A stretch of 64,000 nucleotides of DNA from Alphaproteobacteria bacterium (lineage in GTDB: Bacteria; Pseudomonadota; Alphaproteobacteria; SP197). Positions 15,153-46,722 of the stretch are shown here, one piece after another. The notes beneath the pieces were generated by a model. The model searched no databases. It was not told where the DNA came from and was given only the letters and a program-made list of their open reading frames with translations. The translations under genes were made by a program, and so were the position numbers. Where the stretch lies: the NCBI GenBank assembly GCA_964291265.2, contig OZ219747.1, positions 32,001-96,000 of the forward strand, read 5' to 3'. Each line of letters begins with the position of its first letter. Position 1 is the first letter of the stretch.

Positions 15153-16016
15153 CTACTTGGAAGGGAAGGCTGGTGTTCGTGCCTTGAGGACGTCGTTCCA
15201 GTCTTTGTGTCCGTCTGGGGGTCTCATGCGGAGAGCTCTTGGGTCTTGGCTGACGAGGCGCTCGGCGGCCTGTTCTCCGACGGGATCGGCGTCGAAGGCG
15301 ACGAGGATGCGCTTTGGCGTCCAGGCTTCGGCCCATGTTGGGAGACGGTAAGCGATGCCGGCGGTTGACAGGATCACGGTAGCGGATTGCCGACATTCCT
15401 TGAGGCACCATGCGGAGAGGGCGTCGATGGCGCTTTCGGTGATGATGATGGTGCGTGGCATGGAGCGGTCCACGGGGATCCAGAAGCTGCCGGCGGCCTT
15501 GCGTGATCCTCGCGCCATGGCTCTGTACTGCTTTCCGTCTGCGTTGGGGACGGTACCGACGATCTCGGCGCCGGAGAGGTCTCTTTGTGCGTTGGTGCAT
15601 GTGAAGACGGCGTTTCTGCGTTCGTCGGCGGCGACGAGGCCGTGCTGTCGGCAAGCGTCCAGGCAACGGTCTGGCAGGCGGCGGTCATGGGCGAGGTAGT
15701 GGCGTACGGCGTGCCAGGTTTCCTCGCAGTGCGTTGGTGTTCTCGGCCCCTTGCCGCCGGAGCGTGCGGTGAGGAGTGCGACGGCGTCGTTGAAGCTGCA
15801 GCGGTGTGCATGCATGACGAGATCGATGGCGCCGCCACCGCCGGACTGGGTGATGTGGTCGAACCAGCGTTGTCGGTTGACGCTGATGACGGATCCGTGG
15901 CGCTTGAAGCGTCGCGGGTCGCGCGGGTCTCTTCGGTAGCCGAGCCGCAGGGCGAGTGGTTCGAGGGGCTGGTTGCGGATGTCATCGAGATGCTGATTGT
16001 CCCAGGACCGGATCAT
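15153..16016 (-). CDS. DUF3991/Toprim primase-like protein
   Basis: WFDH...GGGGAIDLVMH N-terminal module; IITESAIDALS, LSTAG, AFDADPVGE, KDWNDVL Toprim motifs. Confidence 0.8.
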   Translation of the reverse strand: MIRSWDNQHLDDIRNQPLEPLALRLGYRRDPRDPRRFKRHGSVISVNRQRWFDHITQSGGGGAIDLVMHAHRCSFNDAVALLTARSGGKGPRTPTHCEETWHAVRHYLAHDRRLPDRCLDACRQHGLVAADERRNAVFTCTNAQRDLSGAEIVGTVPNADGKQYRAMARGSRKAAGSFWIPVDRSMPRTIIITESAIDALSAWCLKECRQSATVILSTAGIAYRLPTWAEAWTPKRILVAFDADPVGEQAAERLVSQDPRALRMRPPDGHKDWNDVLKARTPAFPSK

Positions 16017-16051
16017 GGTCTGTCGAGCCTCCTGCGTGGTGGACGGGGGGT

Positions 16052-16116
16052 GGTTCCCGTTGGCGGTTCCCACCTGAACTCCCAGGGTGAACGGGAACCG
16101 GGAACCGGGAACCGCC
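16052..16116. repeat. Inverted iteron-like array: 2x GGTTCCC facing 3x tandem GGGAACC
   Basis: GGTTCCC at 16052 and 16065; GGGAACC at 16093, 16100 and 16107; lies between the helicase-like and primase-like genes. Confidence 0.85.
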
Positions 16117-16150
16117 TGGCGTCGGGGCGTTTTGCGCCTGGTTGTTGCGG

Positions 16151-17098
16151 TCAGGCTTTGGCGACGCGATAGGCACCGGGACCGTCCTGTGCGACACGTC
16201 CTTCCTGGACGAGCTTGGCTAGAAGCGTGGCGACGGTCGTGTTCCGTGTTGGGACGCGGTCCCGGACCTGGCGCAGCGAGAGCGGGGCATCGGCGTCGGC
16301 GAGGACCTGGACGATGCGCTGTTCGGGGGTTGGCGGCTGCGGCCTGGCGCCGTCGGGTTCCTGTTGCCGCAGCTGCAGGGCGGCTCCGTTGCCGCTGTCG
16401 GTGAGTTCGATGTCGAGATCGGCGAGTCCGGGTGCGGCGCGGTGTTCGACGGTCATGAGGATGGTTTCGTGGCGGCGCCGCAGGTAGAGGTTGCTGTCGC
16501 CCCATGCGTGCAGCTCGCTGCTTCCGCGCAAGGCCTGTCCGGGCCGGCTGGCGGCGCTCTTGCGTGCGTGGTGGACGAGCAGCACGGCGGCGCCGGAGTG
16601 TCGCTGCACGTCGCGCAGGAAGCCGAGGATCGGCGCGATCTCGGCGACGGCGTTTTCATCGACGCCGTGCAGGCGGACGAGGGGGTCGAGGATGAGCAGG
16701 CGGGAGCCGTGACGCTCGACGGTCTCGAGCAGGCTCTGGCGGTCGGTTGGGTGGTCGAGGCGCAGTGCGGGGACGTCGATGACGGCGATGTCGAGGGTGT
16801 CGAAGTCGGCGCCGGCTGCGGCGGCGATGCCCTGGAGGCGGCGTCGCACGATGTGGCCGGCGTCCTCGGCGGCGAACATGAGCACCGGTCCGGGGTGCAC
16901 GGCCGGGAAGCGGCGCAGACAGGGGACGCCGGCGGCGACGGCGACGGCGAGATCGAGGGCGAGGAAGGACTTTCCGCACTTGGGTTCGCCGCCGATGATG
17001 CCGACGGCCTCGCGGCCCCACAGGCTGTCGACGAGCCACTGCCCCTCGGTTGGCCGGTCCTCGAGTTCGGCCGGGCTGCGGGTTGGCAGGCCGATCAT
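16151..17098 (-). CDS. RecA-fold AAA_25 (RepA/helicase-like) ATPase with probable C-terminal HTH
   Basis: WLVDSLW, GGEPKCGKS Walker A, AAED, LLILDP Walker B, LLVHHARK, ALRGSSELHAW. Confidence 0.85.
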   Translation of the reverse strand: MIGLPTRSPAELEDRPTEGQWLVDSLWGREAVGIIGGEPKCGKSFLALDLAVAVAAGVPCLRRFPAVHPGPVLMFAAEDAGHIVRRRLQGIAAAAGADFDTLDIAVIDVPALRLDHPTDRQSLLETVERHGSRLLILDPLVRLHGVDENAVAEIAPILGFLRDVQRHSGAAVLLVHHARKSAASRPGQALRGSSELHAWGDSNLYLRRRHETILMTVEHRAAPGLADLDIELTDSGNGAALQLRQQEPDGARPQPPTPEQRIVQVLADADAPLSLRQVRDRVPTRNTTVATLLAKLVQEGRVAQDGPGAYRVAKA

Positions 17099-17925
17099 CG
17101 TGTGCGCCTCGGCGGGATGGGTTCGCCCCAGGTTTCGAGGAAGAGCTTTTCGTCGAGCACCTCGCGGTCGGTGTCGAGGGCGACAGCGAGGAGGTTGTCG
17201 GCGAGGATGGTCAGGGAGCGCGGATTGCCGTCTGCATGGACGACGAGGGTCTCCTTGAGGCCGGGGGTCATGAGGCCTGGATTGCCGGCGGCGTCGAGCA
17301 GGTGGTCGAGCAGGCGGAGCAGTTCGTCGGGTTCGCAGCGCGTCATGACGAGGCGTTGACGGACCCGCGAGGCGACGGCTTGCAGGTCGGGGCTGTGCAG
17401 CTTGGCGAGCAGGCGGCTGTCGCCGGCCAGGACGACGCTGAGGATGGCGCGCGAGTCGAACTCCGTGGAGGCGAGCAGGCGCAGTTCGGTGAGCACGGCC
17501 TGCGGCATCTCCTGGGCCTCGTCGACGAGCAGGACCGGGCGCATGCGGGTGTCCTCGAGATGGGTGAGCCAGCACTCGCGCAAGGCCTTGAAGCCGGCCC
17601 AGAGGTTCCGGCGCAGGGTCGTGATGCCGAAGAGGTCGGTCATCTCGCGGTAGAAGTCTGCGGTGCTCGACGAGGGATGGGCGAGCACGGCGACGTCGAG
17701 GCCCTCCGCGGTCTCGAGACGCTCGTCGAGCAGGCGCAGGGCGACGCTCTTGCCGGTGCCATGCTCGCCGGCCACCACGGCGAAGCCGCCCTGGCGCACG
17801 AGCTGACGCTCGATCCTGCGGCAGAAGCTGTCGATCGCGGGCGTTGCGAGAAGGCCCTCGACCGGCAGGTCGGCGGCGAAGGGGTTCCACTTGAGGCCGT
17901 AATGGGTGAGGTGTTGGCGGTTCAT
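17095..17925 (-). CDS. ExeA-like AAA ATPase (transposition helper)
   Basis: YGLKWNPF, GEHGTGKS, LLVDEAQEM, VVLAGD, GNPRSL; overlaps transposase stop. Confidence 0.85.
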   Translation of the reverse strand: MNRQHLTHYGLKWNPFAADLPVEGLLATPAIDSFCRRIERQLVRQGGFAVVAGEHGTGKSVALRLLDERLETAEGLDVAVLAHPSSSTADFYREMTDLFGITTLRRNLWAGFKALRECWLTHLEDTRMRPVLLVDEAQEMPQAVLTELRLLASTEFDSRAILSVVLAGDSRLLAKLHSPDLQAVASRVRQRLVMTRCEPDELLRLLDHLLDAAGNPGLMTPGLKETLVVHADGNPRSLTILADNLLAVALDTDREVLDEKLFLETWGEPIPPRRTR

Positions 17926-19439
17926 GACATGTCTCCCTGATCGTTGTTGTCCTTGCCTTCGTCGTTCGGGCCGGCCTCCTTGCCGAAGGGCAACCATGCC
18001 GGGGGCAGGCCGGTGGCGTCCTGCTCGTCGCGGAGGCGCTTGAGCAGCGGCGCCGGCCCGGTCTGTGGCTTCACCTCGTCGTCTTCTCTCCGGCGCCCGG
18101 TCCGGCGGCGGAGCCCCTCGGCGTTGCGAGACTTGTCCACCGGACGCAGGGTCGAGATGCGGTCCCCGGTGCGGCCGTCGACCATGTCGATGCCGGAGAG
18201 GTCCCAGCGGGCGACGCGCAGGTCGATCTCGCGCAGGTGGCGCCACGGCGCCGGCAGTTGATAGCGGACACTCGCCACCGTCACCGTGGCGTCGGAGCGT
18301 CGCACCTTGCGACGCACCTTGATGCGGAAGGCGGCCCGGAGTTCGCTGCTGTCCGGGCATGTCCGCGAGGCGTCCTCGCTGTCGATCACGCGCCTGAGCG
18401 GCGTGACCCCCGTCTCGCGGTGTACGCGGCGGTGATACTCGCGCTCGAACCAGATGACGGTGGCGTCGTTCAGGTCCTGCAGGGTCAGGGTCTCGACGTT
18501 CTCGAGCATCGCCATCAGGCGGCCCTCGACCTGGGCGAACAGCACCTCCTGCTTGCCGTTCTGGTACGGGCTGCGGACAAGCGTGTGGTGGTGCAGCACG
18601 CCGAGGGCGTGCAGTCCCTCCTGCACCTCCCCGGCCGTCATCGCCGATCCGTTGTCGGTCAGAAGGGACCGCGGCAGCCCTCGCTTCATGAAGGCCTGGC
18701 TGATGCCGTGAACGAAGATCTCCGTGGTCTCCCCGAGATACCACTGCATGTGGCAGACGAGACGCGAATGGTCGTCGATGAAGCTGAGCAGGATCGGCGT
18801 CCTCCACTCCCCGGACGGCGTCAGCACGCGACAGGTCCGCGCATGGTGGAAGTCGGCGTGCCACAGGGCATGGCTGCGCGAGACCTCGTAGCTCAGCACC
18901 TCGCGCCCCTCGACCGCAGGCCGCTCCGCTTCACCACCGAACTTCCGCTGCCGCCGCCGCCGCTCCAGGCCCGCCGAACGCATGACCCGGGTCAGCGTCG
19001 CATAGGACGGCATCGGCCCGAGCGAAGGGTCGGCCTCGACCAGCGCGCAAAGGTTGTCGTGGTGGAGCTGAACCGACCACGTGGGGTGCGCCCTGTACTG
19101 GTCGCGCAAGGCCGCCATCAGCAGGGGCGAGACGCTCCGCGCACGACCGGCGTCGCAGCGCACCCGACGGCGCAGCGCCCGCACCGGATCCCGGTCGGCC
19201 GACCGCGCCTTGTAGTACCAGCGCTCGATCGTCGACACCGAGAACCGGATCGTGCCGCCCCTGACGGGATGCTCCCAGTCCCGCCGCGACAGCCGTTGAA
19301 GCTCGGCCCGCAGACCCCCCTTCGGCGGCGGCGACGCCAGCAGCGGGCCAACCACCGCAAAGCGCAGCCGCGTCCAGGCGTCCCCGGCGTCCGCTTCGTC
19401 CTTCGTCACCACGACAGCCTTCCTCCCTCGTCGTCCCAT
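17922..19439 (-). CDS. DDE transposase (rve core with Mu-like C-terminus)
   Basis: LWHADFHH, IDDHSR, LLTDNGSAM, SPYQNGKQE, YHRRVHRETGVTP, RKVRRSDATVTV. Confidence 0.9.
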   Translation of the reverse strand: MGRRGRKAVVVTKDEADAGDAWTRLRFAVVGPLLASPPPKGGLRAELQRLSRRDWEHPVRGGTIRFSVSTIERWYYKARSADRDPVRALRRRVRCDAGRARSVSPLLMAALRDQYRAHPTWSVQLHHDNLCALVEADPSLGPMPSYATLTRVMRSAGLERRRRQRKFGGEAERPAVEGREVLSYEVSRSHALWHADFHHARTCRVLTPSGEWRTPILLSFIDDHSRLVCHMQWYLGETTEIFVHGISQAFMKRGLPRSLLTDNGSAMTAGEVQEGLHALGVLHHHTLVRSPYQNGKQEVLFAQVEGRLMAMLENVETLTLQDLNDATVIWFEREYHRRVHRETGVTPLRRVIDSEDASRTCPDSSELRAAFRIKVRRKVRRSDATVTVASVRYQLPAPWRHLREIDLRVARWDLSGIDMVDGRTGDRISTLRPVDKSRNAEGLRRRTGRRREDDEVKPQTGPAPLLKRLRDEQDATGLPPAWLPFGKEAGPNDEGKDNNDQGDMS

Positions 19440-19461
19440 GGGAGGAAGGCCCTATACGGTC

Positions 19462-20076
19462 CTATGTCATCGCACTACAGGCACTCTCTGCGGGCGGCGA
19501 CAGACCATCGACGATCCTGCAGAAGCCGGTCCACGGCATGAGCCAGACCAGGCTCCGCAGAAGGCGCGATCGAAACGATCCGCCGCGCATCAAGCGCACC
19601 AGGGCCACAAGCGGAGGCTCGTCCGCCTCCACCGCCAGATCGCCACGTTTCCAGCGCCACGCCGCCGTCGCCGGGAACCTCTCCCGCCACCATCGACGCC
19701 ACCGGCCAAGCGTCCTCTCCGGGATGCCAGACATGCGGCTCGCCTTCGCCAGGGGAACACTGCCGCACAGAACCAGGAGGCTCGCAGCCAGGTATACCGG
19801 CGCCGCACGGAACCTCCGGCCGAAGAAGCGCACCGAGGGCGGAGTCGTCCGGCTCCTGCACTCAGCACAGCAGAAGCTGAAACGGCGGTTGTCGCCGCGA
19901 AGAGCAGGCGCAAGCGCGTGCGGCTTGCGCGGATACCGCGCGCTGTGAAGACGACCGCCGCAATGCGGGCATCCCTCCAGGCGGCAGCGCTCCGCCTCGG
20001 CCGCATCAATCCTCTCAAGGAGAGGCCAGACATGAGCGCAGGAAAGTATGGGACCCGGGAAGGAAACGTGCGACAT
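19462..20076 (-). CDS. Zn-ribbon/HTH transposon accessory protein (DUF6431-like)
   Basis: GCPHCGGRLHSARYPRKP, RFSFCCAECRSRTTPPSVRF, GIPERTLGRWRRWWRE; directly upstream of transposase. Confidence 0.7.
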   Translation of the reverse strand: MSHVSFPGPILSCAHVWPLLERIDAAEAERCRLEGCPHCGGRLHSARYPRKPHALAPALRGDNRRFSFCCAECRSRTTPPSVRFFGRRFRAAPVYLAASLLVLCGSVPLAKASRMSGIPERTLGRWRRWWRERFPATAAWRWKRGDLAVEADEPPLVALVRLMRGGSFRSRLLRSLVWLMPWTGFCRIVDGLSPPAESACSAMT

Positions 20077-20113
20077 TGACTGGCCTCCGGTGATCTCACC
20101 GTCACGGAGACAA

Positions 20114-20150
20114 GCCCCTCGGCCGACTTCTTGCAAGTCGGTCGAGGGGC
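20114..20150. other. Strong 16-bp-stem hairpin upstream of element A first gene
   Basis: GCCCCTCGGCCGACTT-cttgc-AAGTCGGTCGAGGGGC, 15/16 complementary. Confidence 0.7.
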
Positions 20151-20286
20151 AATCACCCCAGACCAGCAGACAATTCAAGCAAAACCGACGGAATCCACGT
20201 CAAAAATCGCGCAAACGCTTAGCACCCTATACCCCTGGCCTGCCATGGCTCCATGGCGCAGGACGAATCACCTGGAGAGGAATGCA

Positions 20287-21153
20287 GTGAGCGAACGCGC
20301 CAGGGGACTGACGATCACCACACTGGCCATGCTGGTGATCACGCCCGATGTCCTGCTGATACGACTGATCGACACCGATCCCTGGACACTGGCCTTCTGG
20401 CGCGGGCTCCTGTCCGCCGCCGGACTCGTCGTCGGGCTCATGGCCGTCTACCGTCGCCGAGCTGTGGAGGTCATGCTGGCGCCCGGTGTTTCAGGTCTCG
20501 TGATCGGCATCCTCTTCGGCGTCGGCACCGTCGCCTTTGTCTGGGCCATCACCCATACCTCGGCTGCCAGCGCCCTGCTGATCATCGCCACCGGCAGCAT
20601 GTTCGGTGCGGCGTTTTCCTGGCTTCTCATGCGCGAAAGGCTGCCGATCCACACCATCGGCGCAATGATCGGGACCTTCGCCGGACTGCTGATCATCGTC
20701 TCCGGGGAAGCCGGCGCCGGCTCCTCCCTGGAGGGCGATCTTTCCGCCCTCGTTGTGGCCGCGCTCTCGGGCCTGACCTTCGCCCTCATCCGCAAACACA
20801 GGATGACGGACATGGTTCCCACCCTGGCCATCGGCGGTCTCGTCACAGCGACCATCGCCGCGGCCGTCTCCTTGCCGGTGGCCGTCGGCACGGGAGATGC
20901 CCGCCTGATCGCCGTCATGGGGTTCATCATGCTCCCTCTTGCCTTCGCCCTGCAGTTCATCGGCGCCCGCTACATTCCGGCCCCGGAAGTCCTGCTCCTC
21001 TTCCTGCTGGAGGCGGTCCTGGCGCCCGTTCTCGTGTGGGCGGTGATCGGTGAGGAACCCGCCGGCACCACACTCCTGGGCGGACTGGTGATTCTTGCCA
21101 CACTGGCCTCGCACGCCGTCTGGAGCCTGCGCTGCAAGGTCCTGTCCGGATGA
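20287..21153 (+). CDS. DMT/EamA family transporter
   Basis: ~10 TM segments, LMRERL, LLEAVLAPVLVWAVIGEEP motifs; GTG start after GGAGAGG. Confidence 0.9.
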   Translation: MSERARGLTITTLAMLVITPDVLLIRLIDTDPWTLAFWRGLLSAAGLVVGLMAVYRRRAVEVMLAPGVSGLVIGILFGVGTVAFVWAITHTSAASALLIIATGSMFGAAFSWLLMRERLPIHTIGAMIGTFAGLLIIVSGEAGAGSSLEGDLSALVVAALSGLTFALIRKHRMTDMVPTLAIGGLVTATIAAAVSLPVAVGTGDARLIAVMGFIMLPLAFALQFIGARYIPAPEVLLLFLLEAVLAPVLVWAVIGEEPAGTTLLGGLVILATLASHAVWSLRCKVLSG

Positions 21154-21579
21154 CCCGACCGGCGTTGTCAATCGGAACCGACGGGACACCATCAGCAAGA
21201 CAGGTCCGCGGAACGTCCGGACGTGTGACTGAATCCCGCTCAAGTCCATGCCATGGTCCTGCAACATGGCAAGGGCCGGCCGGCTCACGCCACGGTGGCT
21301 TGCGAGGGCGTCCATGCTCCGGGGTGACGCGTCGGAGTCTTGTCGAATGGGGCAAGGCAGTCACAACCGGCATCCGGCGATGCCCGGAGAGTCATGCAAT
21401 CGGGCAAGCCCGGCACCACCAGCCGCCTGGCGCGACACGACACTGCCGACTCGACCCGCCTCCTCCATCACCACGTCACGCGACGCCAGCAATCCCTCGA
21501 TGGCGGGCACGATGTCTCTGCGGGACATCCCGCAGGCGCGTTCAAGCGCCCGGATCATTTCCCCAGGTACGTCACGGCG

Positions 21580-23246
21580 GGGTGTGAGTCTAGTATGGCA
21601 GTTATGTTATGGTCTTAAGTTATGGACTTAGTTCCATTGTTTCATCTCATGCGGCCAGCGCCGGGGTGTGATGTGGGCTGATGTTGTCGTTGGCTGGTGC
21701 GTTGTCGCCCTCGATCATGGCGGTCCACGCGCTTTCGAAGCGGCCGGATTTGATGAGGGCGCGGAAGGTGAGAACGGCTTGTCCGCCGACGATGCGCCAG
21801 CGCATGCCGGAGCGCTTCATGCGCTGTGTGACGAGGGTCTTGTTGGCTGCCTCGACAAGTCCCGAGCCGATGGCGATCCCCTGTTGCTTCAGTGCGTGGT
21901 AGCGCATGCGGTGGCGATGCTTGCGGAAGAAGGCCAGTTCCCTGTCGATGTCGGCTCGGCCCGCCGGCTTGGCGGTGTCGCGAAGGTGGCGCAGCGCCCG
22001 GATCACCCTGTCGATGCCGCAGGGGTCGTGACGCAGGATCTCGCGGTACTTCTCGAACCAGTGGGGCGCCGCTGCATGGTCGGCCACCACGCGCAGATGC
22101 TCGCAGGCATGCCAGAAGTCGATCACCTCGGTTTCGGGTTCAAGACCAGAGAGGAAGGTCCAGTTGTCGGCGGCGGCGGCGGCGATGGCGCTGATCCTGA
22201 TCTCGGGACGCTCACGCCTGATATGCGCGACCTCGCTTGCCAGCTGCGCCTTCAGCGTGCACTTGCCGCGCTCGGGCATGCGGCCGAGATAGACGGTCTT
22301 CAGGCGCTCACCGTCGGCGTCGTGGAAGGAGACTGTGCCACAGGCCGCCTCGCGCCAGCAGGCCTCGCTACGGCCGTCCTCGCCGGCCCGCAGCGCCACC
22401 ATGACGCCGTCGAGCGAGACCGAGGCGGTGACCGCGTCCTGCGGAATGTCCTCGGCTTCCCGGATGCCATCCAGGGCCTGCGGGCCGAGACCTTCCCAAC
22501 GCTCCTGCATGGTCAGGCTCAAGCGCTGCAAGGTGCTCACAGACGGCGTCATGGCGCCGAGCTTGCCGAAGAACGCCTCCGCTTCCCGCGCCGTGCAGTG
22601 GACCATCATCATCAGCCCAAGCTGAGCCGCCGGCCGTGTCAGGTAGTCGTCGACGAGGCCCAGGCTTTCGTCCACCGGCATCAGCGACCGGCGGTGCCCG
22701 CCGGTGCGGTAGCGCGCACGCCGAAAGGTCACCGGGCCGAGCGAGGTCATGATCGTCTTCGGCGTCGGCGCCACACGGAACCAGTTCTGCCCGTCCCGCT
22801 CGATCCGGGGCGCACCGTCGTCCCGGGCCTCGGCACAGGCACCCAGGATCTCGCAGCCAAGCGCGTGCACGCTCTCAAGCACCCGCCGCTCCGCTTCCTC
22901 GAAGGCCTCGGCAGAGCGCTCTGAACCGAGCTGCCGATGACACACCGCGGTCACTTGCGTGACCGCTTCGACAACCCGAGGCGGCAAGCCGGAAAGATCG
23001 ATGGACGCGGAAGGCCGAAGCTGTGACACTGACATGGGAGCGCTCCTGATGTTGTGGGTTGAAGCCAGCATCATATCGCATCTTGCGGTGCGGAGCGTTC
23101 CCGCATCCACCGCCAAGCCCTGCTGTCGTGACAAAATCCGGTCCTGAAACGGGCAATTGTCACGAAACCCCGTTTTCGCCGCTCCATCGCGACCGCACAA
23201 CCGTGATAAATCAATGACTTGGCTTCGCCATACGAGAACTACACCC
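21580..23246 (-). mobile_element. ISKra4/ISLre2-like insertion sequence, 1667 bp
   Basis: TIRs GGGTGTGAGTCTAGTATGGC / GGGTGTAGTTCTCGTATGGC; 8-bp TSD TCACGGCG at 21572-21579 and 23247-23254. Confidence 0.9.
21647..23035 (-). CDS. ISKra4-like DDE transposase
   Basis: VSLDGVMV, IDFWHACEHL, IGSGLVEAANK, QRMKRSGMRW motifs. Confidence 0.9.
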   Translation of the reverse strand: MSVSQLRPSASIDLSGLPPRVVEAVTQVTAVCHRQLGSERSAEAFEEAERRVLESVHALGCEILGACAEARDDGAPRIERDGQNWFRVAPTPKTIMTSLGPVTFRRARYRTGGHRRSLMPVDESLGLVDDYLTRPAAQLGLMMMVHCTAREAEAFFGKLGAMTPSVSTLQRLSLTMQERWEGLGPQALDGIREAEDIPQDAVTASVSLDGVMVALRAGEDGRSEACWREAACGTVSFHDADGERLKTVYLGRMPERGKCTLKAQLASEVAHIRRERPEIRISAIAAAAADNWTFLSGLEPETEVIDFWHACEHLRVVADHAAAPHWFEKYREILRHDPCGIDRVIRALRHLRDTAKPAGRADIDRELAFFRKHRHRMRYHALKQQGIAIGSGLVEAANKTLVTQRMKRSGMRWRIVGGQAVLTFRALIKSGRFESAWTAMIEGDNAPANDNISPHHTPALAA

Positions 23247-23726
23247 TCACGGCGGCTGAGTCCGGGGTCGCGCTCCGCAAGGCCTTCGATCAGGTCAGTC
23301 GCTGCCTGACCCTGTCTCTTGTCACCCTGAACCAGGACCTTGGTAACAGGCCCGATCACTCGCACGCACAGGCGGCAACGGCCTCATCCACCCGCCAAGG
23401 CTGACGTCTGTCCGACGGGAATCCGCGACACTGGTCGACGCGAATGCGGTCTGCCACATGATGCGGCCGCGGTCCGACCCGCAGGTCGCCGCCTTCAGCG
23501 CAACTCCGGCATACGCGATTCGCCCGTATTCGCCAGGATCCGCTCAAGCCTCATGGAACGCCCGCCAGTCAGGCGCCTCGCACGACAAGGCCGCCGGCGG
23601 CAGACACAGGCCGCCGCCCGTCAGCTGCAGGGCCGCATCCCGCGGTTCGTCGAAAGCACCCCATGGCCTCGATCATGAACGAGATCGTGTGATCAGTCTG
23701 TTGGCAGATGCTCAGAGGGACCGGAA

Positions 23727-23882
23727 TCAGCCGTCAGTGCATGACCGCACGCCGGCCAGCCGCACCTCGCCACCATCGAGCAGGATGCACCTGATTCGGT
23801 CGCCGGCCGACAGGTCTGGCGCAACCCGCACGCCCTTCGGCAAGGCGGCCTCTCCCTTGACAGTCACTGTCGATTCCTGCAC
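23727..23882 (-). pseudogene. AbrB/MazE-type antitoxin remnant
   Basis: Manual translation VQESTVTVKGEAALPKGVRVAPDLSAGDRIRCILLDGGEVRL; upstream of the vapC remnant. Confidence 0.6.
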
Positions 23883-23991
23883 GTGACGTACCGTTTCCAG
23901 AATCGATATCGCAGTGCAATGGCACGCGTCACCTGACCTGCGCCCTCACGTCGCCTGGCGGGGCAGGACACCGTTCTCGCCGCCGCACTCC

Positions 23992-25182: not shown

Positions 25183-25212
25183 GGGTAACGTCCCTTCTCA
25201 GGTGATGCCGCC

Positions 25213-32843: not shown

Positions 32844-33989
32844 GTGAGCACGATGCCCGTTGAAACGCCGGGGTCTCGCTCGGTGAGACTTCCGGTGAAT
32901 CGACACGATACGCTGTTCCGGGCACTGGTCTCCGAACCGTCCCGTGCCGCTTCTCTGCTCACCGACTACTTGCCGCGGAAGGTGGCTGAACTCCTCGATC
33001 CCGAGGCGCCGTTCGAGGCGGTTGGGGAGAGTTTCGTCGACAAGGCCGCCCGTACCACCCAGTGCGATGCGCTGTTCCGGGTGAGATTGAAGGACGGCAA
33101 AGATGCGCGCCTCTACGTGCTGCTCGAACACAAGAGCTACGTCGACGCCGAGACGCCGCTCCAGCTTCTGGGATACATGGTCAACATCTGGCGGCGCGAG
33201 ATCGAGCGGAGCAAGAGCGAGCGGAGCAAGAGCGAGGGCGGCGGGAACGACATCAAGCTGCCGGCGATCATCCCCCTGGTCTTCTATCACGGCCGGGGTC
33301 GCTGGAAGGCGGCGCGCTCGGTGCTGAAGATGATCGACGCGCCCGAGAAGCTGAAGCCGTTCGTCAGGGAGTTCGCCTATGTGGTGCACGACCTCGGGGA
33401 GATGGCGCCGGACCGGCCGTCGACCTCGCCCGAGGTGCGGTCCGCTCTTCTGGCGCTCAGGTTTGCCTTTGCCGAGGAGGTACCGCCCGATCTTCTCGAC
33501 GTGATCATGGACGGGCTGCTTGCAGGGAGCGACTTCGAGCACCATATTGTGCGCTACATGACCGAGCACCAGGGCCTGACGCCGGCCATGCTGGAGGCGT
33601 CTTTGCGCCGGACGAAGCCGGACCATTGGGAGGTGTTGATGGGCACGATCGCACAAACCTGGGTCGAACAGGGAAGATCCGAGGGACTCGAGAGGGGAAG
33701 AGCCGAGGGTATCGAGAGGGGAAGAGCCGAGGGTATCGAGAGAGGACGAGCCGAGGGTATCGAGAGAGGAAGAGCCGAGGGACTCGAGAGGGGACTTGAA
33801 CGAGGCCGGAGTGAGGCCCTCGCGGAACTTCTTCTTCGTCAACTGTCCCTGCGCTTCGGTGATGTGCCGGATGCGGTCCGCGAGCGGGTGCGCGGCGCGT
33901 CGGCCGCCGAACTGGAGGCCTGGGCGGAGGCGGTGCTGGCTGCCCCAAGTCTTGATGATGTGCTGGCCGCCAGGCCCAGGCAGCGGTAA
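32844..33989 (+). CDS. Rpn family (RpnC/YadD) PD-(D/E)XK nuclease with DUF4351-like C-terminus
   Basis: HDTLFR, CDALF, YVLLEHKS, LQLLGYM, PLVFYHG, EGxERGRA repeats, LLLRQLSLRFG; real start may be GTG near 32895. Confidence 0.92.
   Translation: MSTMPVETPGSRSVRLPVNRHDTLFRALVSEPSRAASLLTDYLPRKVAELLDPEAPFEAVGESFVDKAARTTQCDALFRVRLKDGKDARLYVLLEHKSYVDAETPLQLLGYMVNIWRREIERSKSERSKSEGGGNDIKLPAIIPLVFYHGRGRWKAARSVLKMIDAPEKLKPFVREFAYVVHDLGEMAPDRPSTSPEVRSALLALRFAFAEEVPPDLLDVIMDGLLAGSDFEHHIVRYMTEHQGLTPAMLEASLRRTKPDHWEVLMGTIAQTWVEQGRSEGLERGRAEGIERGRAEGIERGRAEGIERGRAEGLERGLERGRSEALAELLLRQLSLRFGDVPDAVRERVRGASAAELEAWAEAVLAAPSLDDVLAARPRQR
33668..33812 (+). repeat. 24-bp coding tandem repeats (EGI/LERGRA) in Rpn
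   Basis: GAGGGTATCGAGAGGGGAAGAGCC-like unit repeated ~5 times. Confidence 0.9.
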
Positions 33990-39769: not shown

Positions 39770-39815
39770 ACACACGCCGGCGGATAGCTCGCCGGGAACA
39801 GTCAGGGAGAATCTC

Positions 39816-40859
39816 ATGACAAGGAAGGTGCTGGTAGCAGGATTGGGCAACATGGGCATGAGCCATGCTCTCGCCTACACGCGGATCGACGGCTTCGAGG
39901 TGGTGGGGGTCTGCGCCAGGCGCATCGCGTCGATGGAGCTTCCCGATGCCCTCGCGGGCGCCCGGAGGTTTGCCGATTTCGACACCGCGCTTCGCGAGCT
40001 GAAACCCGATGTCGTTTCCGTCAACACCCTGCCCGACACCCATGGACCGTTTGCCATGCGGGCCATGGAGAGCGGGGCCCATGTCTTCGTCGAAAAGCCG
40101 CTCGCCGAGAGCGCCGACATGGCGGCAGAGGTCGTGGCCACGGCGAGGCGCACGGGTTGCAAGCTCGTCGTGGGGTACATCCTCAGGCAACACCCGTCCT
40201 GGGTTCGCTTCATCGAAATCGCCCGCCAGCTTGGAACGCCGCTGGTATTCCGCATGAACCTCAACCAGCAATCGAACGCCGAGACCTGGGACTGGCACAA
40301 GAGGCTCATGCAGAGCTTCCCTCCCATCGTCGATTGCGGTGTGCATTACGTTGATGTCATGTGCCAGATGACCCGTGCGCGACCGACCAGCGTGCACGCC
40401 ATCGGCGCCAGGCTCACCGATGAGGTGGCCGTCAACAACTACGGCATGCTCCAGGTCACCTTCGAGGATGGATCGGTCGGCTGGTACGAGGCAGGCTGGG
40501 GCCCGATGATGAGCGAAACCGCGTTTTTCGTGAAGGATGTCGTCGGGCCCAAGGGCTCGGTGTCGATCGTCATGGCCGAGACCTCGGGGGATGTCCGCTC
40601 CGATGACATCAACGCCCATACGCGAACCAACCAGATCCTCGTGCACCATGCCGATCTCTCGAAAGCCGACGAGCGGATCGACATGGCGGACGAACCCGAT
40701 CATGACGAACTGTGCGAACGCGAACAGCGCTTCCTCCTGGATGCCATCGAGCGGGATGTCGATCTTTGCGATCACATGGATGATGCGGTCACGAGCCTGC
40801 GCATCGTGTCGGCCGCCGACCGCTCGATACACGAAGGGCGGGTGATACCGCTCACATGA
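39816..40859 (+). CDS. Gfo/Idh/MocA family oxidoreductase
   Basis: GLGNMG, HVFVEKPLA, DCGVHYVD. Confidence 0.93.
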   Translation: MTRKVLVAGLGNMGMSHALAYTRIDGFEVVGVCARRIASMELPDALAGARRFADFDTALRELKPDVVSVNTLPDTHGPFAMRAMESGAHVFVEKPLAESADMAAEVVATARRTGCKLVVGYILRQHPSWVRFIEIARQLGTPLVFRMNLNQQSNAETWDWHKRLMQSFPPIVDCGVHYVDVMCQMTRARPTSVHAIGARLTDEVAVNNYGMLQVTFEDGSVGWYEAGWGPMMSETAFFVKDVVGPKGSVSIVMAETSGDVRSDDINAHTRTNQILVHHADLSKADERIDMADEPDHDELCEREQRFLLDAIERDVDLCDHMDDAVTSLRIVSAADRSIHEGRVIPLT

Positions 40860-40881
40860 CGACGGGCCTGGATCCAAGTCC

Positions 40882-42663
40882 ATGAGCGATCCCGCCACGA
40901 TCTGGCTTGAGAAGTTCAACGGCGCACTGAGCCGGGGAGAGCGACGAGTCATCACCGAACTCTTTGGCGAGGAATGCTACTGGCGCGATCTTCTCGCCTT
41001 CACGTGGAACATCCGAACCATGCATGGCCGGGGCGAAATCCGCGTCATGCTGGAGACAACGCTCGACCGCCTGCAGCCCATCCACTTCACCCTCGCCGAG
41101 CCGCCGGTCGAGGTCGACGACATGGTGGAAGCCATACTCGCCTTCAAAACCGCCACGGCCCGAGGCACGGCGCACCTGCGCCTGAGGAATGGTGCCGCCT
41201 TCACACTGCTCACGATGATGGAATCGCTCATCGGACACGAGGAGCACGCGGGACCGCGACGCCCCCGGGGTGTCGTTCACGGGGCTGTGGCGCACCGCCG
41301 GACCTGGGCGGAGGACCGACAGCGGCATGCCCGTGACTTCGGTGTCGAAACACAACCCCATGTCGTCATCGTCGGCGGAGGCCAGGGAGGCCTGGCGCTT
41401 GGCGCCCGCCTGAAACGCCTGGGTGTGCCGAACCTGATCATCGAACGCCGGACCAGGCCGGGCGATTCCTGGCGCAGCCGCTACCGGACCCTGGTGCTTC
41501 ACGATCCTGTCTGGTACGACCACCTGCCCTACCTGCCGTTCCCCGACGACTGGCCCGTGTTCACGCCGAAGGACAAGATGGGGGATTGGCTGGAGGCGTA
41601 CGCCACGGTCATGGAACTCGACTTCCGGGGTTCGACGACATGCCTTGGCGCCCGCTTCGACGACGCCTCGCGCGAGTGGTCGGTCGACGTGGAGTGCCGG
41701 GGACAGCCTGTGACCCTTCGCCCCCGACACCTCGTGCTGGCAACAGGCGCCTACGGACCACCGCACATTCCCGAGATCGACGGCGCCCGCCGCTTCGCCG
41801 GAACGATCATGCATTCAAGCGATTACCAGAGCGGCGAGGCATGGTCGGACAAGCGGTGCGTGGTGATCGGATCGAACACGTCCGCCCACGACATCTGCGT
41901 CGATCTCTGGGAGTGCGGCGCCAGCGACATCACCATGGTGCAGCGCTCGTCAACGCTGGTGGTGCGCTCCGAGACCCTGATGGACATCGGGTTCGGCGCA
42001 CTCTACTCCGAAGAGGCTCTGGCGCGTGGCATCACCACGGAACGCGCCGATCTCGAGTTTGCGTCGGTGCCGTTTGCCCTGATGGCCGAGCGCGGCAGGA
42101 AGGCGACGCGGCTCATGGAAGAGCGCGACGCCGACCTCCTTCACCGTCTGGACATGGCCGGGTTCAGGCGTGATTCCGGCGTCGACGGAAGCGGCCTCAT
42201 GATGAAGGCCTTCCGCACGGGCAGTGGCTACTACATCGATGTCGGCGGTTCGGAACTCATCGCCGACGGCCGCGTGGGAATCAGGAGCGGTGTCGAGCCG
42301 ACGGGTTTCAGTGCCGACGCCGTCGCGCTCTCCGACGGTTCCTCGCTCAGGGCCGATCTCGTGGTCCTCGCCACGGGATACCACACCGTCCAGGAGACGA
42401 TTTCCGGGCTTCTCGGCGCAGAGACGGCCGCAAGGATCGGTCATTGCTGGGGCTACGGTTCGGGAACGCCGGGCGATCCCGGACCTTGGGAAGGCGAAAT
42501 GCGCAACCTGTGGAAGCCGCTGGCCCAGGAAGCGCTCTGGATCCATGGCGGCAACCTGCACCTCTCGCGGTTCTATTCCAGGATCCTCGCCCTTCAGATC
42601 AAGGCGCGCATGGAAGGCGTCCCGACCCCGGTCTTCGGAGAACCTTCCAACTCGGCCCGCTGA
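40882..42663 (+). CDS. Flavin-containing monooxygenase with N-terminal SnoaL-like domain
   Basis: YWRDLLAFTWN, GGGQGG, GDSWRSRY, MHSSDY, IGSNTSAHD, LATGY. Confidence 0.92.
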   Translation: MSDPATIWLEKFNGALSRGERRVITELFGEECYWRDLLAFTWNIRTMHGRGEIRVMLETTLDRLQPIHFTLAEPPVEVDDMVEAILAFKTATARGTAHLRLRNGAAFTLLTMMESLIGHEEHAGPRRPRGVVHGAVAHRRTWAEDRQRHARDFGVETQPHVVIVGGGQGGLALGARLKRLGVPNLIIERRTRPGDSWRSRYRTLVLHDPVWYDHLPYLPFPDDWPVFTPKDKMGDWLEAYATVMELDFRGSTTCLGARFDDASREWSVDVECRGQPVTLRPRHLVLATGAYGPPHIPEIDGARRFAGTIMHSSDYQSGEAWSDKRCVVIGSNTSAHDICVDLWECGASDITMVQRSSTLVVRSETLMDIGFGALYSEEALARGITTERADLEFASVPFALMAERGRKATRLMEERDADLLHRLDMAGFRRDSGVDGSGLMMKAFRTGSGYYIDVGGSELIADGRVGIRSGVEPTGFSADAVALSDGSSLRADLVVLATGYHTVQETISGLLGAETAARIGHCWGYGSGTPGDPGPWEGEMRNLWKPLAQEALWIHGGNLHLSRFYSRILALQIKARMEGVPTPVFGEPSNSAR

Positions 42664-42731
42664 TGTTGATGGCTGCATAGAACGGCGGGATTTCGGCGAT
42701 TTGCCGCGCTTTGTCAGGGTCGTGTTTCTTC

Positions 42732-42824
42732 CCTGTTGTCAGGTCCTATTGTCACGTCCTGTTGTCGTGGTTTGAGTGTTCGGCTGGTTGTCTCCCCGAG
42801 CGCCGCCGTCTTTTCCTATTGTCG
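42732..42824 (+). repeat. CCTRTTGTC subterminal repeats, three at 13-bp spacing plus a fourth
   Basis: CCTGTTGTCA 42732, CCTATTGTCA 42745, CCTGTTGTCG 42758, CCTATTGTCG 42815. Confidence 0.85.
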
Positions 42825-43087
42825 TTTTGGTCCGGTTCGGGTTCCGTCGACCTCTGCTTCGGTCTTGGTGACGGTTGCCGGGAGGGTTCCGGTTCCGAGG
42901 CACTCGCGGGATCGTCTGTCTTCCCTGTGGGCGGGTCGCGTTGTCCGGTCCCGGGGCGGCGTCTTTGCCGCCGCCCCGGGTGGATGCTAGATCGGCATCA
43001 AGAGAAAGAGCGATGCGATGCCGGGCGGAGTTGTGACGCCCCCCGGCGCAGCACCCGGACGAGCCGGTCACGGGGGACCGAACTCCC

Positions 43088-43618
43088 GTGTATTGTCGAG
43101 CCATTTTGCGTCCGGGTCCACCCCCGCTCTCGAGACGGACGGTGTGCACGACAGGACGACTGTTCAACTGCAGGCGGTGTCAGCGGCAGGTTGTTCTCTG
43201 CCGGTCGTGTGACCGGGGGCATGTGTATTGCTCCAAGGAGTGCAGGGAGCGGTCCCGGATCGAGCGGCGCCGCGCGTCGCGTCGTCGCTACCAGAGCACG
43301 CTGAAGGGCCGTGAGACGGGCCGTCACCGCCAGCGGCGTTACCGGCTCCGCAAGGCGGAGGAGGCGCGTGCGTTGAAGGCCAGGGCGGCGATGCTTGCCG
43401 AGATCATGGGCACGCAGACGTCTGCTGTGGTGCTGCTTGGCGACGTTCCGGCGGTGTCTGGAGACGCCGGTTCTGAAGAAATCGTTACGGACCACCCTTC
43501 CCGACTGCTGCCGACCTCCCTACCTGCGGTTGTGAAGGCGCAAGAGCGACGCGAATCGCCGCTTCGGTGCGCCAGATGCGGACGGGTCGTGACGCATGTG
43601 GTGCTGAGGGACCCGTGA
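43088..43618 (+). CDS. Cys-rich (Zn-finger) basic protein upstream of istA
   Basis: CRRCQRQVVLCRSCDRGHVYCSKEC...RRRYQST...RQRRYR...CARCGR; start uncertain. Confidence 0.65.
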   Translation: MYCRAILRPGPPPLSRRTVCTTGRLFNCRRCQRQVVLCRSCDRGHVYCSKECRERSRIERRRASRRRYQSTLKGRETGRHRQRRYRLRKAEEARALKARAAMLAEIMGTQTSAVVLLGDVPAVSGDAGSEEIVTDHPSRLLPTSLPAVVKAQERRESPLRCARCGRVVTHVVLRDP

Positions 43619-43650
43619 TGCGGCGTTGAGGAACCAAAGGGAGGGAGTTC

Positions 43651-45144
43651 ATGGCGATCGACGAGGACACGCGGGCGACGATCGTGCGGCTGTCGCGGGC
43701 CGAGGGCTGGGCTGTGGGGACGATTGCCCGGCATCTCGGCGTGCACCACGGCACGGTGACGCGGGCGCTCAAGGCGTCGGGGCAGGAGCGGCGGCCGCGG
43801 GCCAAGCTCATCGACCCCTTCGTTGCCTTCCTCGGGGAGCGTCTTGAGGCGTCGCCGGACCTTCCGGCCAGCACGCTCTGGCGACAGGTCGTGGCTCTGG
43901 GCTACCGCGGCGGCGAGGATCACTTCCGTCACGACCTGCGCCGCCTTGGGCTGAGGCCGGTGAAGAGGCCCGAGCCGTCGCTGCGGCTGAGCTTCCTTCC
44001 GGGCGAGCAGGCGCAGGTTGACTGGGCCGAGTTCGGGAAGGTCCGCATCGGCCGGGCGGAGCGCAGGCTCATGGGGCTTCTCGTCACCCTCAGCTACTCG
44101 CGCCAGACTGTCCTGAGCCTGTTCCACGACGCGCGGATGGCCAGCTTCCTGCAAGGCCATGTCGAGGCTTTCGCGGCATTCGGGGGTGTGCCGCGGAGGC
44201 TTCTGTACGACAACCTGAAGAGTGCCGTGGTGACGCGCCGCGGCAAGGCGGTCACCTATCATCCGATGCTGCTCGGCCTCGCGGCCCACTATGCCTTCGA
44301 ACCGAGCGCCGCCTGGCCCAGGAGCCCGCAGGAGAAGGGCCGCGTGGAACGCCGTGTGCGCTTCGCGCGCACCGGGTTCTTCGCCGGGCACGACATCACG
44401 GTCCCGCTCGGCGAGCTCAACGCCGCGGTTCGGGAGTGGTGCTTCGGCGCCGCCGCGGAGCGGCCCTGGCCGGACGACGACAGTCTCCTGGTGCGGGACG
44501 CCTTCGCCCGGGAGAGGGAGCACCTGATCGTCCTTCCCGCCGATCCCTTCCCGCATCACGAGGTCCGCCCGGTGCGCATCGACAAGACCTGCCACGCCCG
44601 CTTCGACACCAACGACTACAGCGTTCCGGGTAGCTTCTCCAAGGCCCTGCTGACGCTGGTCGCCGACCGCGACGAGGTCCGCATCCTCGACGGCGCCGAC
44701 GAGGTCGCGCGCCACCGACGCTCCTACGACAGGAAGCAGGCCGTCACCGATCCGGAGCATGCCAGGGCGATCGCCGCGGGCAAGCGGCGGGCCCGCTCCA
44801 TGAGCGTCCGCGACCGGGTCCTGCGCACCGTGCCGCGGGCCGAGGAGATGCTGGCGCGCGCCGGGACCAACGGGCGCAACGTGGCCTCCTGCGCCCGGAT
44901 GCTGGAGACGCTTCTCAACGCGCACGGCGCCGACGCTCTCGACCGGGCTGTCGCCACGGCGCTGGAGCGCGGCTCGTGCCACCCCGAAACCGTGCGCGTC
45001 ATCATCGAGGAGCGCCGCCGGGAGCAGGGCCTGCCGCCCCTCAGCATCGCCGACGACGGCCGCGGCGGCCGTGGCACGACGCCGCGGGGGACCGCTCTCG
45101 ACGCCTACGACAGGCCCGAAGCCAGCGCCAGGAACAAGACATGA
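43651..45144 (+). CDS. istA: IS21 family transposase IstA
   Basis: IARHLGVHHGTVTR, PGEQAQVDWAEF, FGGVPRRLLYDNLKSAV, EKGRVERRV; GGGAG RBS. Confidence 0.95.
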   Translation: MAIDEDTRATIVRLSRAEGWAVGTIARHLGVHHGTVTRALKASGQERRPRAKLIDPFVAFLGERLEASPDLPASTLWRQVVALGYRGGEDHFRHDLRRLGLRPVKRPEPSLRLSFLPGEQAQVDWAEFGKVRIGRAERRLMGLLVTLSYSRQTVLSLFHDARMASFLQGHVEAFAAFGGVPRRLLYDNLKSAVVTRRGKAVTYHPMLLGLAAHYAFEPSAAWPRSPQEKGRVERRVRFARTGFFAGHDITVPLGELNAAVREWCFGAAAERPWPDDDSLLVRDAFAREREHLIVLPADPFPHHEVRPVRIDKTCHARFDTNDYSVPGSFSKALLTLVADRDEVRILDGADEVARHRRSYDRKQAVTDPEHARAIAAGKRRARSMSVRDRVLRTVPRAEEMLARAGTNGRNVASCARMLETLLNAHGADALDRAVATALERGSCHPETVRVIIEERRREQGLPPLSIADDGRGGRGTTPRGTALDAYDRPEASARNKT

Positions 45145-45842
45145 GCGAGCTCAGGGAGCGTGCCCGGGCGCTCGGCCTCCACGGGCTCGTCGAACGCTGG
45201 GACGAGGTCGCCGGGACCGCATGGATCGAGGAGGTGGTCAGCGGCGAGGAACAGGCCCGCAGGGCCCGCAGCCACGAGCGCCGCCGCGCCGCGGCGCGGC
45301 TGCCCGCCTTCAAGCCCCTGGCGGACTTCGACTGGACATGGCCGCGCGACATCAGCCGGGCTCATGTCGAAGCGCTCCTCGGCCTCGGCTTCGTCGACCG
45401 TGCGGACAACGCCGTGCTCGTCGGCGGGCAGGGCACCGGAAAGACCATGATCGCCGCCAACGTGGCGCACCAGGCCCTGCTGCACGGCCACACCGTCCGC
45501 TTCGAGAAGGCGCCGGAACTGCTCGAGGCACTCGCCGAGACCGTCTCGCGCAGCGAGCTGCGCCGCCGCCTCGCGATCCTCGCCAGGCCCCGCCTGCTCA
45601 TCCTCGACGAAATCGGCTACGTGACCCTCGAAAGCCACCATGCCGACATCCTCTACGCCATCGTCTCGCGGCGCTATCAGCGCCGCTCGACCATGGTCAC
45701 GACAAGCCTCGCCTTCGCCCAGTGGGACCGCGTCTTCCCCAGCGCCTCCGGCATCGCCGGCACCGTCGACCGGCTCATGCACGACGCAACCCTCATCTCC
45801 ATCGACAGCGACTCCTGGCGGCTCAGGCGTGAAACCCGATAA
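45141..45842 (+). CDS. istB: IS21 helper ATPase IstB
   Basis: LADFDWTWP, GGQGTGKT, LLILDEIGY, VDRLMH, SWR. Confidence 0.93.
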   Translation: MSELRERARALGLHGLVERWDEVAGTAWIEEVVSGEEQARRARSHERRRAAARLPAFKPLADFDWTWPRDISRAHVEALLGLGFVDRADNAVLVGGQGTGKTMIAANVAHQALLHGHTVRFEKAPELLEALAETVSRSELRRRLAILARPRLLILDEIGYVTLESHHADILYAIVSRRYQRRSTMVTTSLAFAQWDRVFPSASGIAGTVDRLMHDATLISIDSDSWRLRRETR

Positions 45843-46722
45843 ACCCCGCCGCGTCGACTTCGACGCCGTCAAGCGCATGCCGTTCGAACGCATCGCCGCC
45901 GACTGGGGATACGTCCGCGACGAACAGGCCTCGACACGCGCCAACCCCGTCCTGTGCGCACCCGGCCTGCCGAAGCTCGTCACGAAGTGCCTCAACAACG
46001 GACACTGGGTCTACTTCAACACCCAGAACGATGAAGACAACGGAACCGTCATCGACTTCATGCTCAACCGCGGACTGGCCTTCGCCGACATCTGCACCCG
46101 CTTCGCAGCACCCGACGCCGCGCCACGCGACTTCCGCAGCCTCTGGGCCGCGGCAACGCCCGATGCGGCCCCGGACTGGCTCACCGGGCGCGGCATCCTC
46201 CCGGAGACCCTCGACACCTGCCGCCCCCTGGTCCGCCGCGACCACAACGGACGCGTCCTCTTCGCCCATCGCAACAGGAAGCGAAAGCTCACCGGCTTCG
46301 AGATCGGTCCCCCCGACGGACCGAAACGCTTCGCCACCGGTGGAACCCGAAGCCTGTTCGCCGTCCGCGCCGGAACCGCCGCGGACCTCGAGGCCCTCGT
46401 CATCACCGAAAGCGCCGTCGACGCCCTCAGCCTGGCCCAGATCGACCAATGTCCCCCCAGCCACGCCTTCCTCTCCACCGCCGGGGCACCCTCGCGAAGA
46501 CAGCACGAACAGATCAGCCTCGCCGCAAGCAGCCTGCCCAACGTCAGGACCATCGTCCTCGCCCAGGACCACGACGAGGCCGGAGAGCGACAGGCCGAAA
46601 CCCTGCGCAAAAAGATGAAGCTCCCCTCCCACGTCTCGTTCCACAGACGCAGACCGCCGGAAAACGCCGACTGGAACGACGTCGTCAACGCCAGGACCAA
46701 AGAACCACAAGCGAGATCATGA
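45829..46722 (+). CDS. DUF3991/Toprim primase-like protein
   Basis: GHWVYFN...DNGTVIDF; WLTGRGI; LVITESAVDALS, LSTAG, AQDHDEAGE, ADWNDVV. Confidence 0.82.
   Translation: MKPDKPRRVDFDAVKRMPFERIAADWGYVRDEQASTRANPVLCAPGLPKLVTKCLNNGHWVYFNTQNDEDNGTVIDFMLNRGLAFADICTRFAAPDAAPRDFRSLWAAATPDAAPDWLTGRGILPETLDTCRPLVRRDHNGRVLFAHRNRKRKLTGFEIGPPDGPKRFATGGTRSLFAVRAGTAADLEALVITESAVDALSLAQIDQCPPSHAFLSTAGAPSRRQHEQISLAASSLPNVRTIVLAQDHDEAGERQAETLRKKMKLPSHVSFHRRRPPENADWNDVVNARTKEPQARS

Follow-up and report, generated by a model that had tools for sequence, protein, structure and literature searches.

How do two transposons with dissimilar backbones, lying in one stretch of bacterial DNA, both come to carry a primase-like gene, and what could such a gene do for them? 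The question is raised by a 64,000-nt sequence (hereafter the window: contig OZ219747.1, positions 32,001-96,000 of the forward strand, assembly GCA_964291265.2) from an Alphaproteobacteria bacterium of the GTDB lineage SP197, which holds two elements that we call A and B. By the common view, small bacterial DDE transposons depend on the host for all DNA synthesis; with a primase of their own they could contribute the copying step themselves and would no longer depend on the host entirely. An initial annotation, made from the window alone, had quoted Toprim motifs in both elements (which are indeed where it placed them) and had proposed a recurring design of zinc finger, DDE transposase, AAA ATPase and primase, acquired either by convergence or by module exchange. 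Our reading, to which we give a probability of about one half, is that both primases were captured independently from conjugative plasmids, are kept by selection and most likely prime the copying synthesis in replicative transposition.

Both primase genes lie inside the ends of genuine transposons that have multiplied recently. Element A, a Tn6049-type transposon of 5160 bp on the reverse strand (window positions 15062-20221, as are all coordinates below unless another source is named), is bounded by TAAGCG...CGCTCA and flanked by the target-site duplication (TSD) GCACC (15057-15061, second copy 20222-20226). The window's own genome (G000, 4.83 Mb, to which element copy counts refer) has nine left and seven right ends of A, which make six pairs, all with a 5-bp TSD; four of these copies measure 5160 bp and in the other two an inserted B adds to the length, matches longer than 3 kb are 99.4-100% identical, and the primase frame is open in 6/6 copies. 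Additionally, we compared contigs from three sequencing runs (X1, X2 and X3, the last two from one study). X2 and X3 hold the empty site, with 5165 bases skipped (the element plus one duplication), and X1, which carries both the A and the B insertions, may be the source of the window and so is not independent.

Element B is a member of the IS21 family (42664-47638, forward strand, 4975 bp here and 5320-5347 bp in most copies of G000), with terminal inverted repeats TGTTGA...CCGACA ending in TG...CA and a GCTGA duplication (42659-42663, second copy 47639-47643). G000 contains 47 left ends, 36 of them paired, and the best TSD of the paired copies is 5 bp in 24, 6 bp in four, 7 bp in two and 0-1 bp in six, which gives 30/36 with 5-7 bp; matches longer than 3 kb are 98.3-100% identical, and B amounts to about 4% of the genome. 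The empty site is again found in X2 and X3 (4980 bases skipped, the element plus one duplication), and the primase frame is open in 35/36 full-length copies. The genes run in the order ORF1 (open reading frame 1, Cys-rich, 43088-43618), IstA transposase (43651-45144; NF033546, 222.6 bits against a cut-off of 160), IstB ATPase (45141-45842; Pfam IstB_IS21, E 2e-50, 172 bits against a cut-off of 24, and NF038214, 192 bits, slightly below its cut-off of 200), the primase-like protein (45829-46722, 297 aa, overlapping the istB stop) and a small ORF (46719-47039) with homologues at the 3' end of other IS21 elements, all on the forward strand. A decayed partial duplicate of the primase gene follows (47145-47478, forward strand; repeat families D3, D5 and D18), with a length that differs between copies. 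The insertion point of the window copy coincides with the stop codon of the upstream ORF (40882-42663), the duplicated GCTGA including the TGA. Copies of B are also nested in or beside one another (G000 C2:4058043-4075257 and 4237404-4258495) and lie twice inside A, and X1 has a short, internally deleted form, in which the left region is joined to the primase tail (42928/46481).

The two primase-like proteins (A: 15153-16016, reverse strand, 287 aa) are related, as the initial annotation had stated: they are 34% identical over 179 aa (E 7e-12) and both consist of DUF3991 and Toprim_2 domains. Among 66 aligned relatives, residues E194, D242, D244 and D272 of A are invariant (66/66), D198 is present in 61/66, and position 173 is always basic (K in 51, R in 15); B has all five acidic residues (E194, D198, D247, D249 and D281). 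The family profile matches the T7 gp4 primase (E 9.5e-8) and E. coli DnaG (E 1.6e-6). A structure was predicted for the A primase only (predicted local distance difference test, pLDDT, of 90); it retains the whole polymerase-domain fold and matches Twinkle, Aquifex DnaG, the T7 primase and DnaG-like phage primases. The ratio of nonsynonymous to synonymous substitutions (dN/dS) is 0.34-0.63 for the A primase and 0.32-0.53 for the B primase (four pairs each), against 0.27-0.65 for the transposases, all being simple counts in high-GC DNA in which dS is probably underestimated, and the primase frames stay intact down to about 40-50% identity. We conclude that both proteins are likely primases of the DnaG/T7 type, as predicted from sequence and fold, and are likely kept by selection. 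No relatives of the A primase or the A helicase were found among viral contigs.

The association with transposases extends to other genomes. A scan of genome contigs for A-type primases gave at least 488 confirmed relatives, and the best 75, all in metagenome-assembled genomes (MAGs), were analysed; 71 of them have at least 1.5 kb of upstream sequence, and a transposase or ATPase lies on the same strand within 5 kb upstream in 70/71, covering 27/27 distinct primases (defined at 90% identity). Nine of the distinct primases come with a helicase and eight with A's own ATPase type, and most of the remainder are associated with a third lineage of transposases, which share about 28% identity with that of A; the member in G005 is 4005 bp long, has 15 matches and TG...CA ends and, among six copies examined, shows a 5-bp TSD in four, 4 bp in one and none in one. 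The MAGs with A-type elements are titled Alphaproteobacteria, Bryobacterales, Verrucomicrobiae and Acidimicrobiales. The B-type primase follows IstB in 16/16 loci (4 of 10 further genomes searched), and among close matches of IstA in the genus outside G000 a primase match lies downstream in 8/10, the exceptions being G015, which has none, and G012, which is a fragment. Of the 83 frames in G000 itself that match the primase profile, 82 fall within or next to DNA like that of A or B. A design of transposase, ATPase and primase thus recurs and is widespread. In random samples both parts tested are rare: the A-type ATPase occurs in 2/400 genomes of the phylum (the one with enough flank has the small ORF of Tn6049 and no primase) and the A-type helicase in 1/400 genomes of the class. 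More distant relatives of the B primase in soil metagenomes (about 35% identity; best 80 of 431 loci) have one of these transposases upstream in 0/38 cases, counting only the seed transposases of this study; a conjugation marker, here a gene for an S26 peptidase, a topoisomerase or a protein that we take to be a transglycosylase (without a Pfam match), is nearby in 37/80.

Where did these primases come from? Plasmid proteins with the same two domains, up to 36.5% identical to A, form the C-terminal domain of MobV relaxases or stand alone beside type IV secretion system (T4SS) or MOBP genes; the A and B primases differ in standing alone inside transposon ends, and a Pfam scan of the element ORFs found no relaxase or T4SS gene within either pair of ends. 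The accessible part of the literature on DUF3991 also places it in a conjugative transfer setting (PMC4073490). In our phylogeny (quick trees, the main one with 90 rows), the A clade adjoins plasmid proteins linked to MobV and T4SS, whereas the B clade lies across a long, fully supported branch among other conjugative primases; the nearest plasmid relatives are MobV-, T4SS- or MOBP-linked. A single clade of A and B was rejected by the approximately unbiased (AU) test (75.7 log units worse, p-AU 0.002), in which 20 transposon-borne rows were constrained together among 42 of the 90, hand-chosen to span the clades; the grouping tested was the hypothesis of the initial annotation, but the initial tree had already been seen, and long branches were flagged. 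Since the two primases are nearest to different conjugative-plasmid primases and are not sisters, their capture appears convergent, and A and B likely acquired them independently. Exchange did take place elsewhere: locus L028 is 28-31% identical to L051, L053 and L064 in transposase and ATPase, and 71-80% in the helicase and 75-80% in the primase, so at the sequence level a block of helicase, repeats and primase is shown to have been swapped between ExeA-type backbones, but not between A and B. Both mechanisms named by the initial annotation have therefore a place, convergence for A and B and exchange among ExeA-type backbones. Of the outcome that it had named as refuting its view, the distant clades are observed in the phylogeny, but the lack of shared context is not. 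Proximity to transposases holds for the A type (within the best 75 relatives) and the B type, while the wider Toprim family is mostly conjugative.

The backbones themselves are dissimilar. Compared in pairs, neither the Cys-rich ORFs nor the transposases nor the ATPases of A and B resemble each other significantly (best E 0.82, 0.022 and 0.092, respectively). The ORF1 of A (19462-20076), a Cys-rich protein with a helix-turn-helix (HTH; HTH_23, below cut-off), transposase (17922-19439; rve, IS481-like, Tn6049 type) and ATPase (17095-17925; ExeA-like, AAA_22), all on the reverse strand, are 46, 49 and 53% identical to those of a Cupriavidus metallidurans CH34 element with the same gene order and an ExeA/GspA-like ATPase, the transposase ranging from 47 to 49%; the Atlas label DUF6431, found on 32-44% of the members of the ORF1 cluster, is a lead only. 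Tn6049 has been reported with one copy on pMOL28, one on pMOL30 and three on CHR2, and 12 in CH34 (sections available of PMC2864759 and PMC4739549). The CH34 matches follow the same pattern on these three replicons and the published ends lie at that locus, so we identify the CH34 element as Tn6049; Tn6048 had also been considered as A's backbone and was rejected in favour of Tn6049 (from the accessible parts of PMC11952213 and PMC4914505). Nevertheless, A is a relative of Tn6049 and not Tn6049 itself, since its ends are TAAGCG/TGAGCG with a 5-bp TSD, rather than the 12-bp ends TGTGCaTaAGCA with a 4-bp duplication described on the Pseudomonas aeruginosa plasmid pHS87a (PMC4739549, in part). Tn6049 is 3.5 kb long against 5160 bp, the ends of A resemble only the inner part of its ends, and where Tn6049 has a small orf4, A has the helicase, the inverted repeats and the primase.

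For B, relatives on Aromatoleum EbN1 plasmid 1 and Mesorhizobium huakuii p_1 share IstA (45-46%), IstB (48-49%) and the Cys-rich ORF1; IS21 elements with such an upstream ORF are also like B in having TG...CA ends and mostly 5-bp duplications. Three plasmid-borne relatives have a 70-aa ORF where B has the primase overlapping the istB stop. Moreover, the 70-aa last ORFs of the CH34 and EbN1 elements (orf4, L213:6309-6524, and orf3, L215:5733-5945) are 65% identical over 55 aa, and this match between Tn6049 and a primase-less IS21 relative suggests that what follows the ATPase can be exchanged in either family. The proposed design of zinc finger, transposase, ATPase and primase is therefore in part correct: the last three recur together, but the Cys-rich ORF is found with backbones that lack a primase as well, and a primase can be dispensed with. 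For the former reason, and because the Cys-rich ORFs of A and B are unrelated, we rejected the idea that this ORF provides the zinc finger missing from the primase. We found no description of primase-carrying IS21 or Tn6049-type elements in the full-text literature (supplements, subscription journals and ISfinder may hold them), nor in the accessible part of PMC8649781, and such variants are apparently undescribed, as the initial annotation had suspected.

In both elements the primase follows a transposase-ATPase pair that is preceded by a Cys-rich ORF, as had been pointed out, but in A a helicase gene (17098-16151, reverse strand), omitted from that description, intervenes. Its product, of 315 aa, is RepA-like (AAA_25, E 3e-36; RepA 1g8y, E 3.3e-13), has at least 7898 relatives and carries a weak C-terminal HTH (HTH_IclR at residues 261-306, below the Pfam cut-off); its single-sequence model is poor (pLDDT 50). 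The 134-bp interval between helicase and primase contains an origin-like repeat site (16050-16115, reverse strand), in which three GGTTCCC-type units face two GGGAACC units across a short spacer. The hexamers GGTTCC/GGAACC occur five times at 16052-16113 in A and three times at 42840-42896 in B (forward strand); the window has 62 such hexamers in all, and nowhere else do three or more fall within 65 bp. The initial annotation had located both clusters correctly and listed them as a shared trait; that they are a single feature is not borne out, and only that of A is inverted and conserved. An inverted array (GTTCC-type facing GGAAC-type) follows the helicase stop in 16/16 hand-selected post-helicase regions; it is found in 13/13 helicase-type loci against 0/21 upstream of helicase-less primases, and the unit co-varies on both arms (GTTAC/GTAAC in L051 and L028, GTTTC/GAAAC in L068). 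Helicase and repeats also occur together, and without a primase, in G011, G013 (six copies), G005 (four), G004 (five), G009 and G806. By comparison of sequences, the inverted repeats track the helicase and not the primase. Folded as single-stranded DNA, the A repeat has a z score of -2.4 and 5/200 shuffles fold equally well; as any inverted repeat folds in this form, this is no evidence for a hairpin. The B trio runs in one direction and probably lies outside the module, and the left regions of five other B-type lineages contain no comparable cluster; it was rejected as a candidate origin, not being conserved. An IS21 lineage in G812, with a primase and no helicase, has an A-like inverted array after the primase (L291:5125-5175; 3/3 copies), and this A-type repeat might be used in trans.

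Parts of this arrangement recall known replication modules. IncQ plasmids combine a RepA helicase with a RepB primase, and casposons and Polintons are self-synthesising elements; the A helicase matches RepA, and the Pfam scan of the element ORFs gave no match to RepC, archaeo-eukaryotic primase (AEP), PolB or Cas1. In Staphylococcus aureus pathogenicity islands (SaPI), the pri-rep-ori region has a helicase with a C-terminal HTH, opposed short repeats directly downstream and an adjacent primase (PMC9371898, sections available). A is alike in its opposed short repeats immediately 3' of such a helicase, but differs in having a RepA-like instead of an SF3/MCM helicase, a primase placed after the repeats, no AT-rich centre and a DDE transposase in place of an integrase. 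The IS-excision enhancer (IEE; IS, insertion sequence) is a primase-helicase that alters the outcome of copy-out transposition in trans (10.1101/2023.06.07.543989, accessible part); unlike the A and B primases it has an AEP and not a Toprim fold, is a separate gene, acts on many IS targets and promotes IS loss, and an IEE-type AEP primase fused to a DEAD/DEAH helicase was absent from the ORFs of A and B in the same scan.

How, then, could a primase serve a transposon? IS21 is listed among the elements with circular intermediates and presumed copy-out transposition, in which replication converts a figure-eight into a circle (10.1101/2023.06.07.543989 and PMC7780238, as far as accessible). In the reading that we favour, the transposase and the ATPase would form a strand-transfer intermediate (the figure-eight presumed for IS21), the co-transcribed primase would lay RNA primers on its displaced strand, and a host polymerase would complete the copy while depending less on DnaG and restart proteins of the host. 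The A helicase would in addition recognise the inverted repeats with its C-terminal HTH and, once loaded at that site, set up a fork within the element. The two modules may be optional boosters in a variable 3' slot, possibly acting in trans too. The primase has a fixed position after the ATPase or the helicase, and all four states exist (backbone only, with helicase and repeats, with primase, and with both), from which the modules appear to be optional but selected. Junctions of right and left ends, expected of circles or tandems, numbered 0 in G000 and none were seen in the X1-X3 contigs, which drop rare forms; the orientation of the elements shows no bias relative to GC skew (B 15/36, p 0.41; A 4/6).

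Several observations weigh against a priming role in transposition. The top fold match of the A model is human Twinkle, whose primase-like domain is inactive, and the N-terminal domain shows no Cys4 zinc motif, with a single Cys in the first 95 aa of A and a fold that matches the zinc-binding domain 1d0q only weakly (E 0.037), so that primase activity is only predicted. Nor is a primase in cis needed for multiplication: Tn6049 is multicopy without one, no Toprim match was found in the three close plasmid IS21 relatives of B (of at least 5000 matching records), X2 and X3 contain a variant of A deleted for repeats and primase (joins 15218/16146), and helicase-only elements are multicopy, with a 5-bp TSD in 6/6 examined. 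No upstream transposase is present at six of the genus's A-type loci (L030, L031 and L035-L038), several of which are fragments, and, because the loci counted are the most similar 75 of at least 488, the transposase-linked fraction may fall further out. Finally, the spacer between the A repeats is short and not AT-rich, and in a figure-eight a 3'-OH is available from the start for one strand, which would leave only the other in need of a primase.

A different possibility is that the modules act after excision, either by letting the free circle replicate for a time as a mini-replicon or by priming the second strand in a new cell, thereby aiding interspecies spread. The likeness of the A helicase and its opposed repeats to the SaPI rep-ori (PMC9371898, in part) is consistent with such a role, and so are the origin of the primase family in conjugation regions (among others the accessible part of PMC4073490), the spread of A-type elements over MAGs with titles from Alphaproteobacteria to Acidimicrobiales, and the IS21 lineage with an A-like repeat after its primase; but B and 18/27 distinct A-type primase elements have no helicase, neither pair of ends encloses a relaxase, and the repeats have no AT-rich core, and we regard this possibility as doubtful. 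About as tentative is a more far-reaching idea, namely that A may be a self-replicating DDE transposon with its own origin, a self-loading helicase and a primase, amplifying its excised circle like a satellite mini-replicon, with B and the primase-only or helicase-only relatives as partial members of a modular, cross-phylum guild sharing parts in trans. The primase could also do another job: it might bind DNA or process ends without priming, act in repair of the donor site or in excision as IEE does, or assist plasmids and elements of the same cell in trans. The absent canonical zinc finger would fit this, IEE sets a precedent for a primase-helicase altering copy-out in trans (10.1101/2023.06.07.543989, accessible part), and in each of G013, G005, G004 and G009 elements with only the helicase coexist with elements with only the primase. 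Against it stand the complete set of DnaG-type acidic residues, the conserved basic residue 173 and the retention of the whole polymerase-domain fold, which make a non-priming job unlikely.

The primase might instead be neutral cargo, a plasmid gene trapped inside the ends and hitchhiking, as primase-less backbones do transpose and the 3' end of B contains decayed primase duplicates. This is very unlikely and already largely refuted, in view of dN/dS values like those of the transposases, intact frames, invariant catalytic residues, a fixed operon position and two independent captures. We find it hardest to credit that a single ancestor already inside a transposon gave rise to both the A and the B primase, with exchange between IS21 and Tn6049-type backbones: the 3' gene shared by CH34 and EbN1 elements shows that both families can have another gene in common, and long branches were flagged in the tree, but the two proteins are only 34% identical over part of their length, plasmid primases fall between them, and the AU test speaks against a common clade. 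Independent capture and a role in priming the transposition copy thus remain our preferred reading, under which three transposase lineages keep a selected primase after at least two independent captures, some adding a helicase and an origin-like site. Natural variants with neither, either or both modules make it directly testable what primes and drives copy-out and whether this step limits copy number or host range, and if the block does replicate circles, it would link insertion sequences to satellites and plasmids.

The surroundings of the two elements contain other features. A DruA-domain (PF14236) ORF recurs around A-type loci (e.g. L078:3253-4263) and is probably another mobile element. 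Near A in the window lie an ISKra4-like transposase (21647-23050, reverse strand, below the NCBIfam cut-off, with 12 near-identical copies in G000) and the remnant of a broken NYN-domain gene (12594-13391, reverse strand). Between A and B, a 24-bp tandem coding repeat (GRAEGIERG-like, 33648-33818) lies in an ORF (32844-33989) that presumably resembles Rpn/PD-(D/E)XK tails, and a 112-bp repeat flanks the gene. Beyond B, two tandem ORFs (49574-50390 and 50462-52091), which we take to resemble dnaQ/epsilon exonucleases, form a 70% DNA repeat, and an Xre/MbcA-like and RES-domain pair (50869-51884, weak Pfam matches), possibly a toxin-antitoxin insertion, has a copy of the 3' end of a coaE-like gene on either side.

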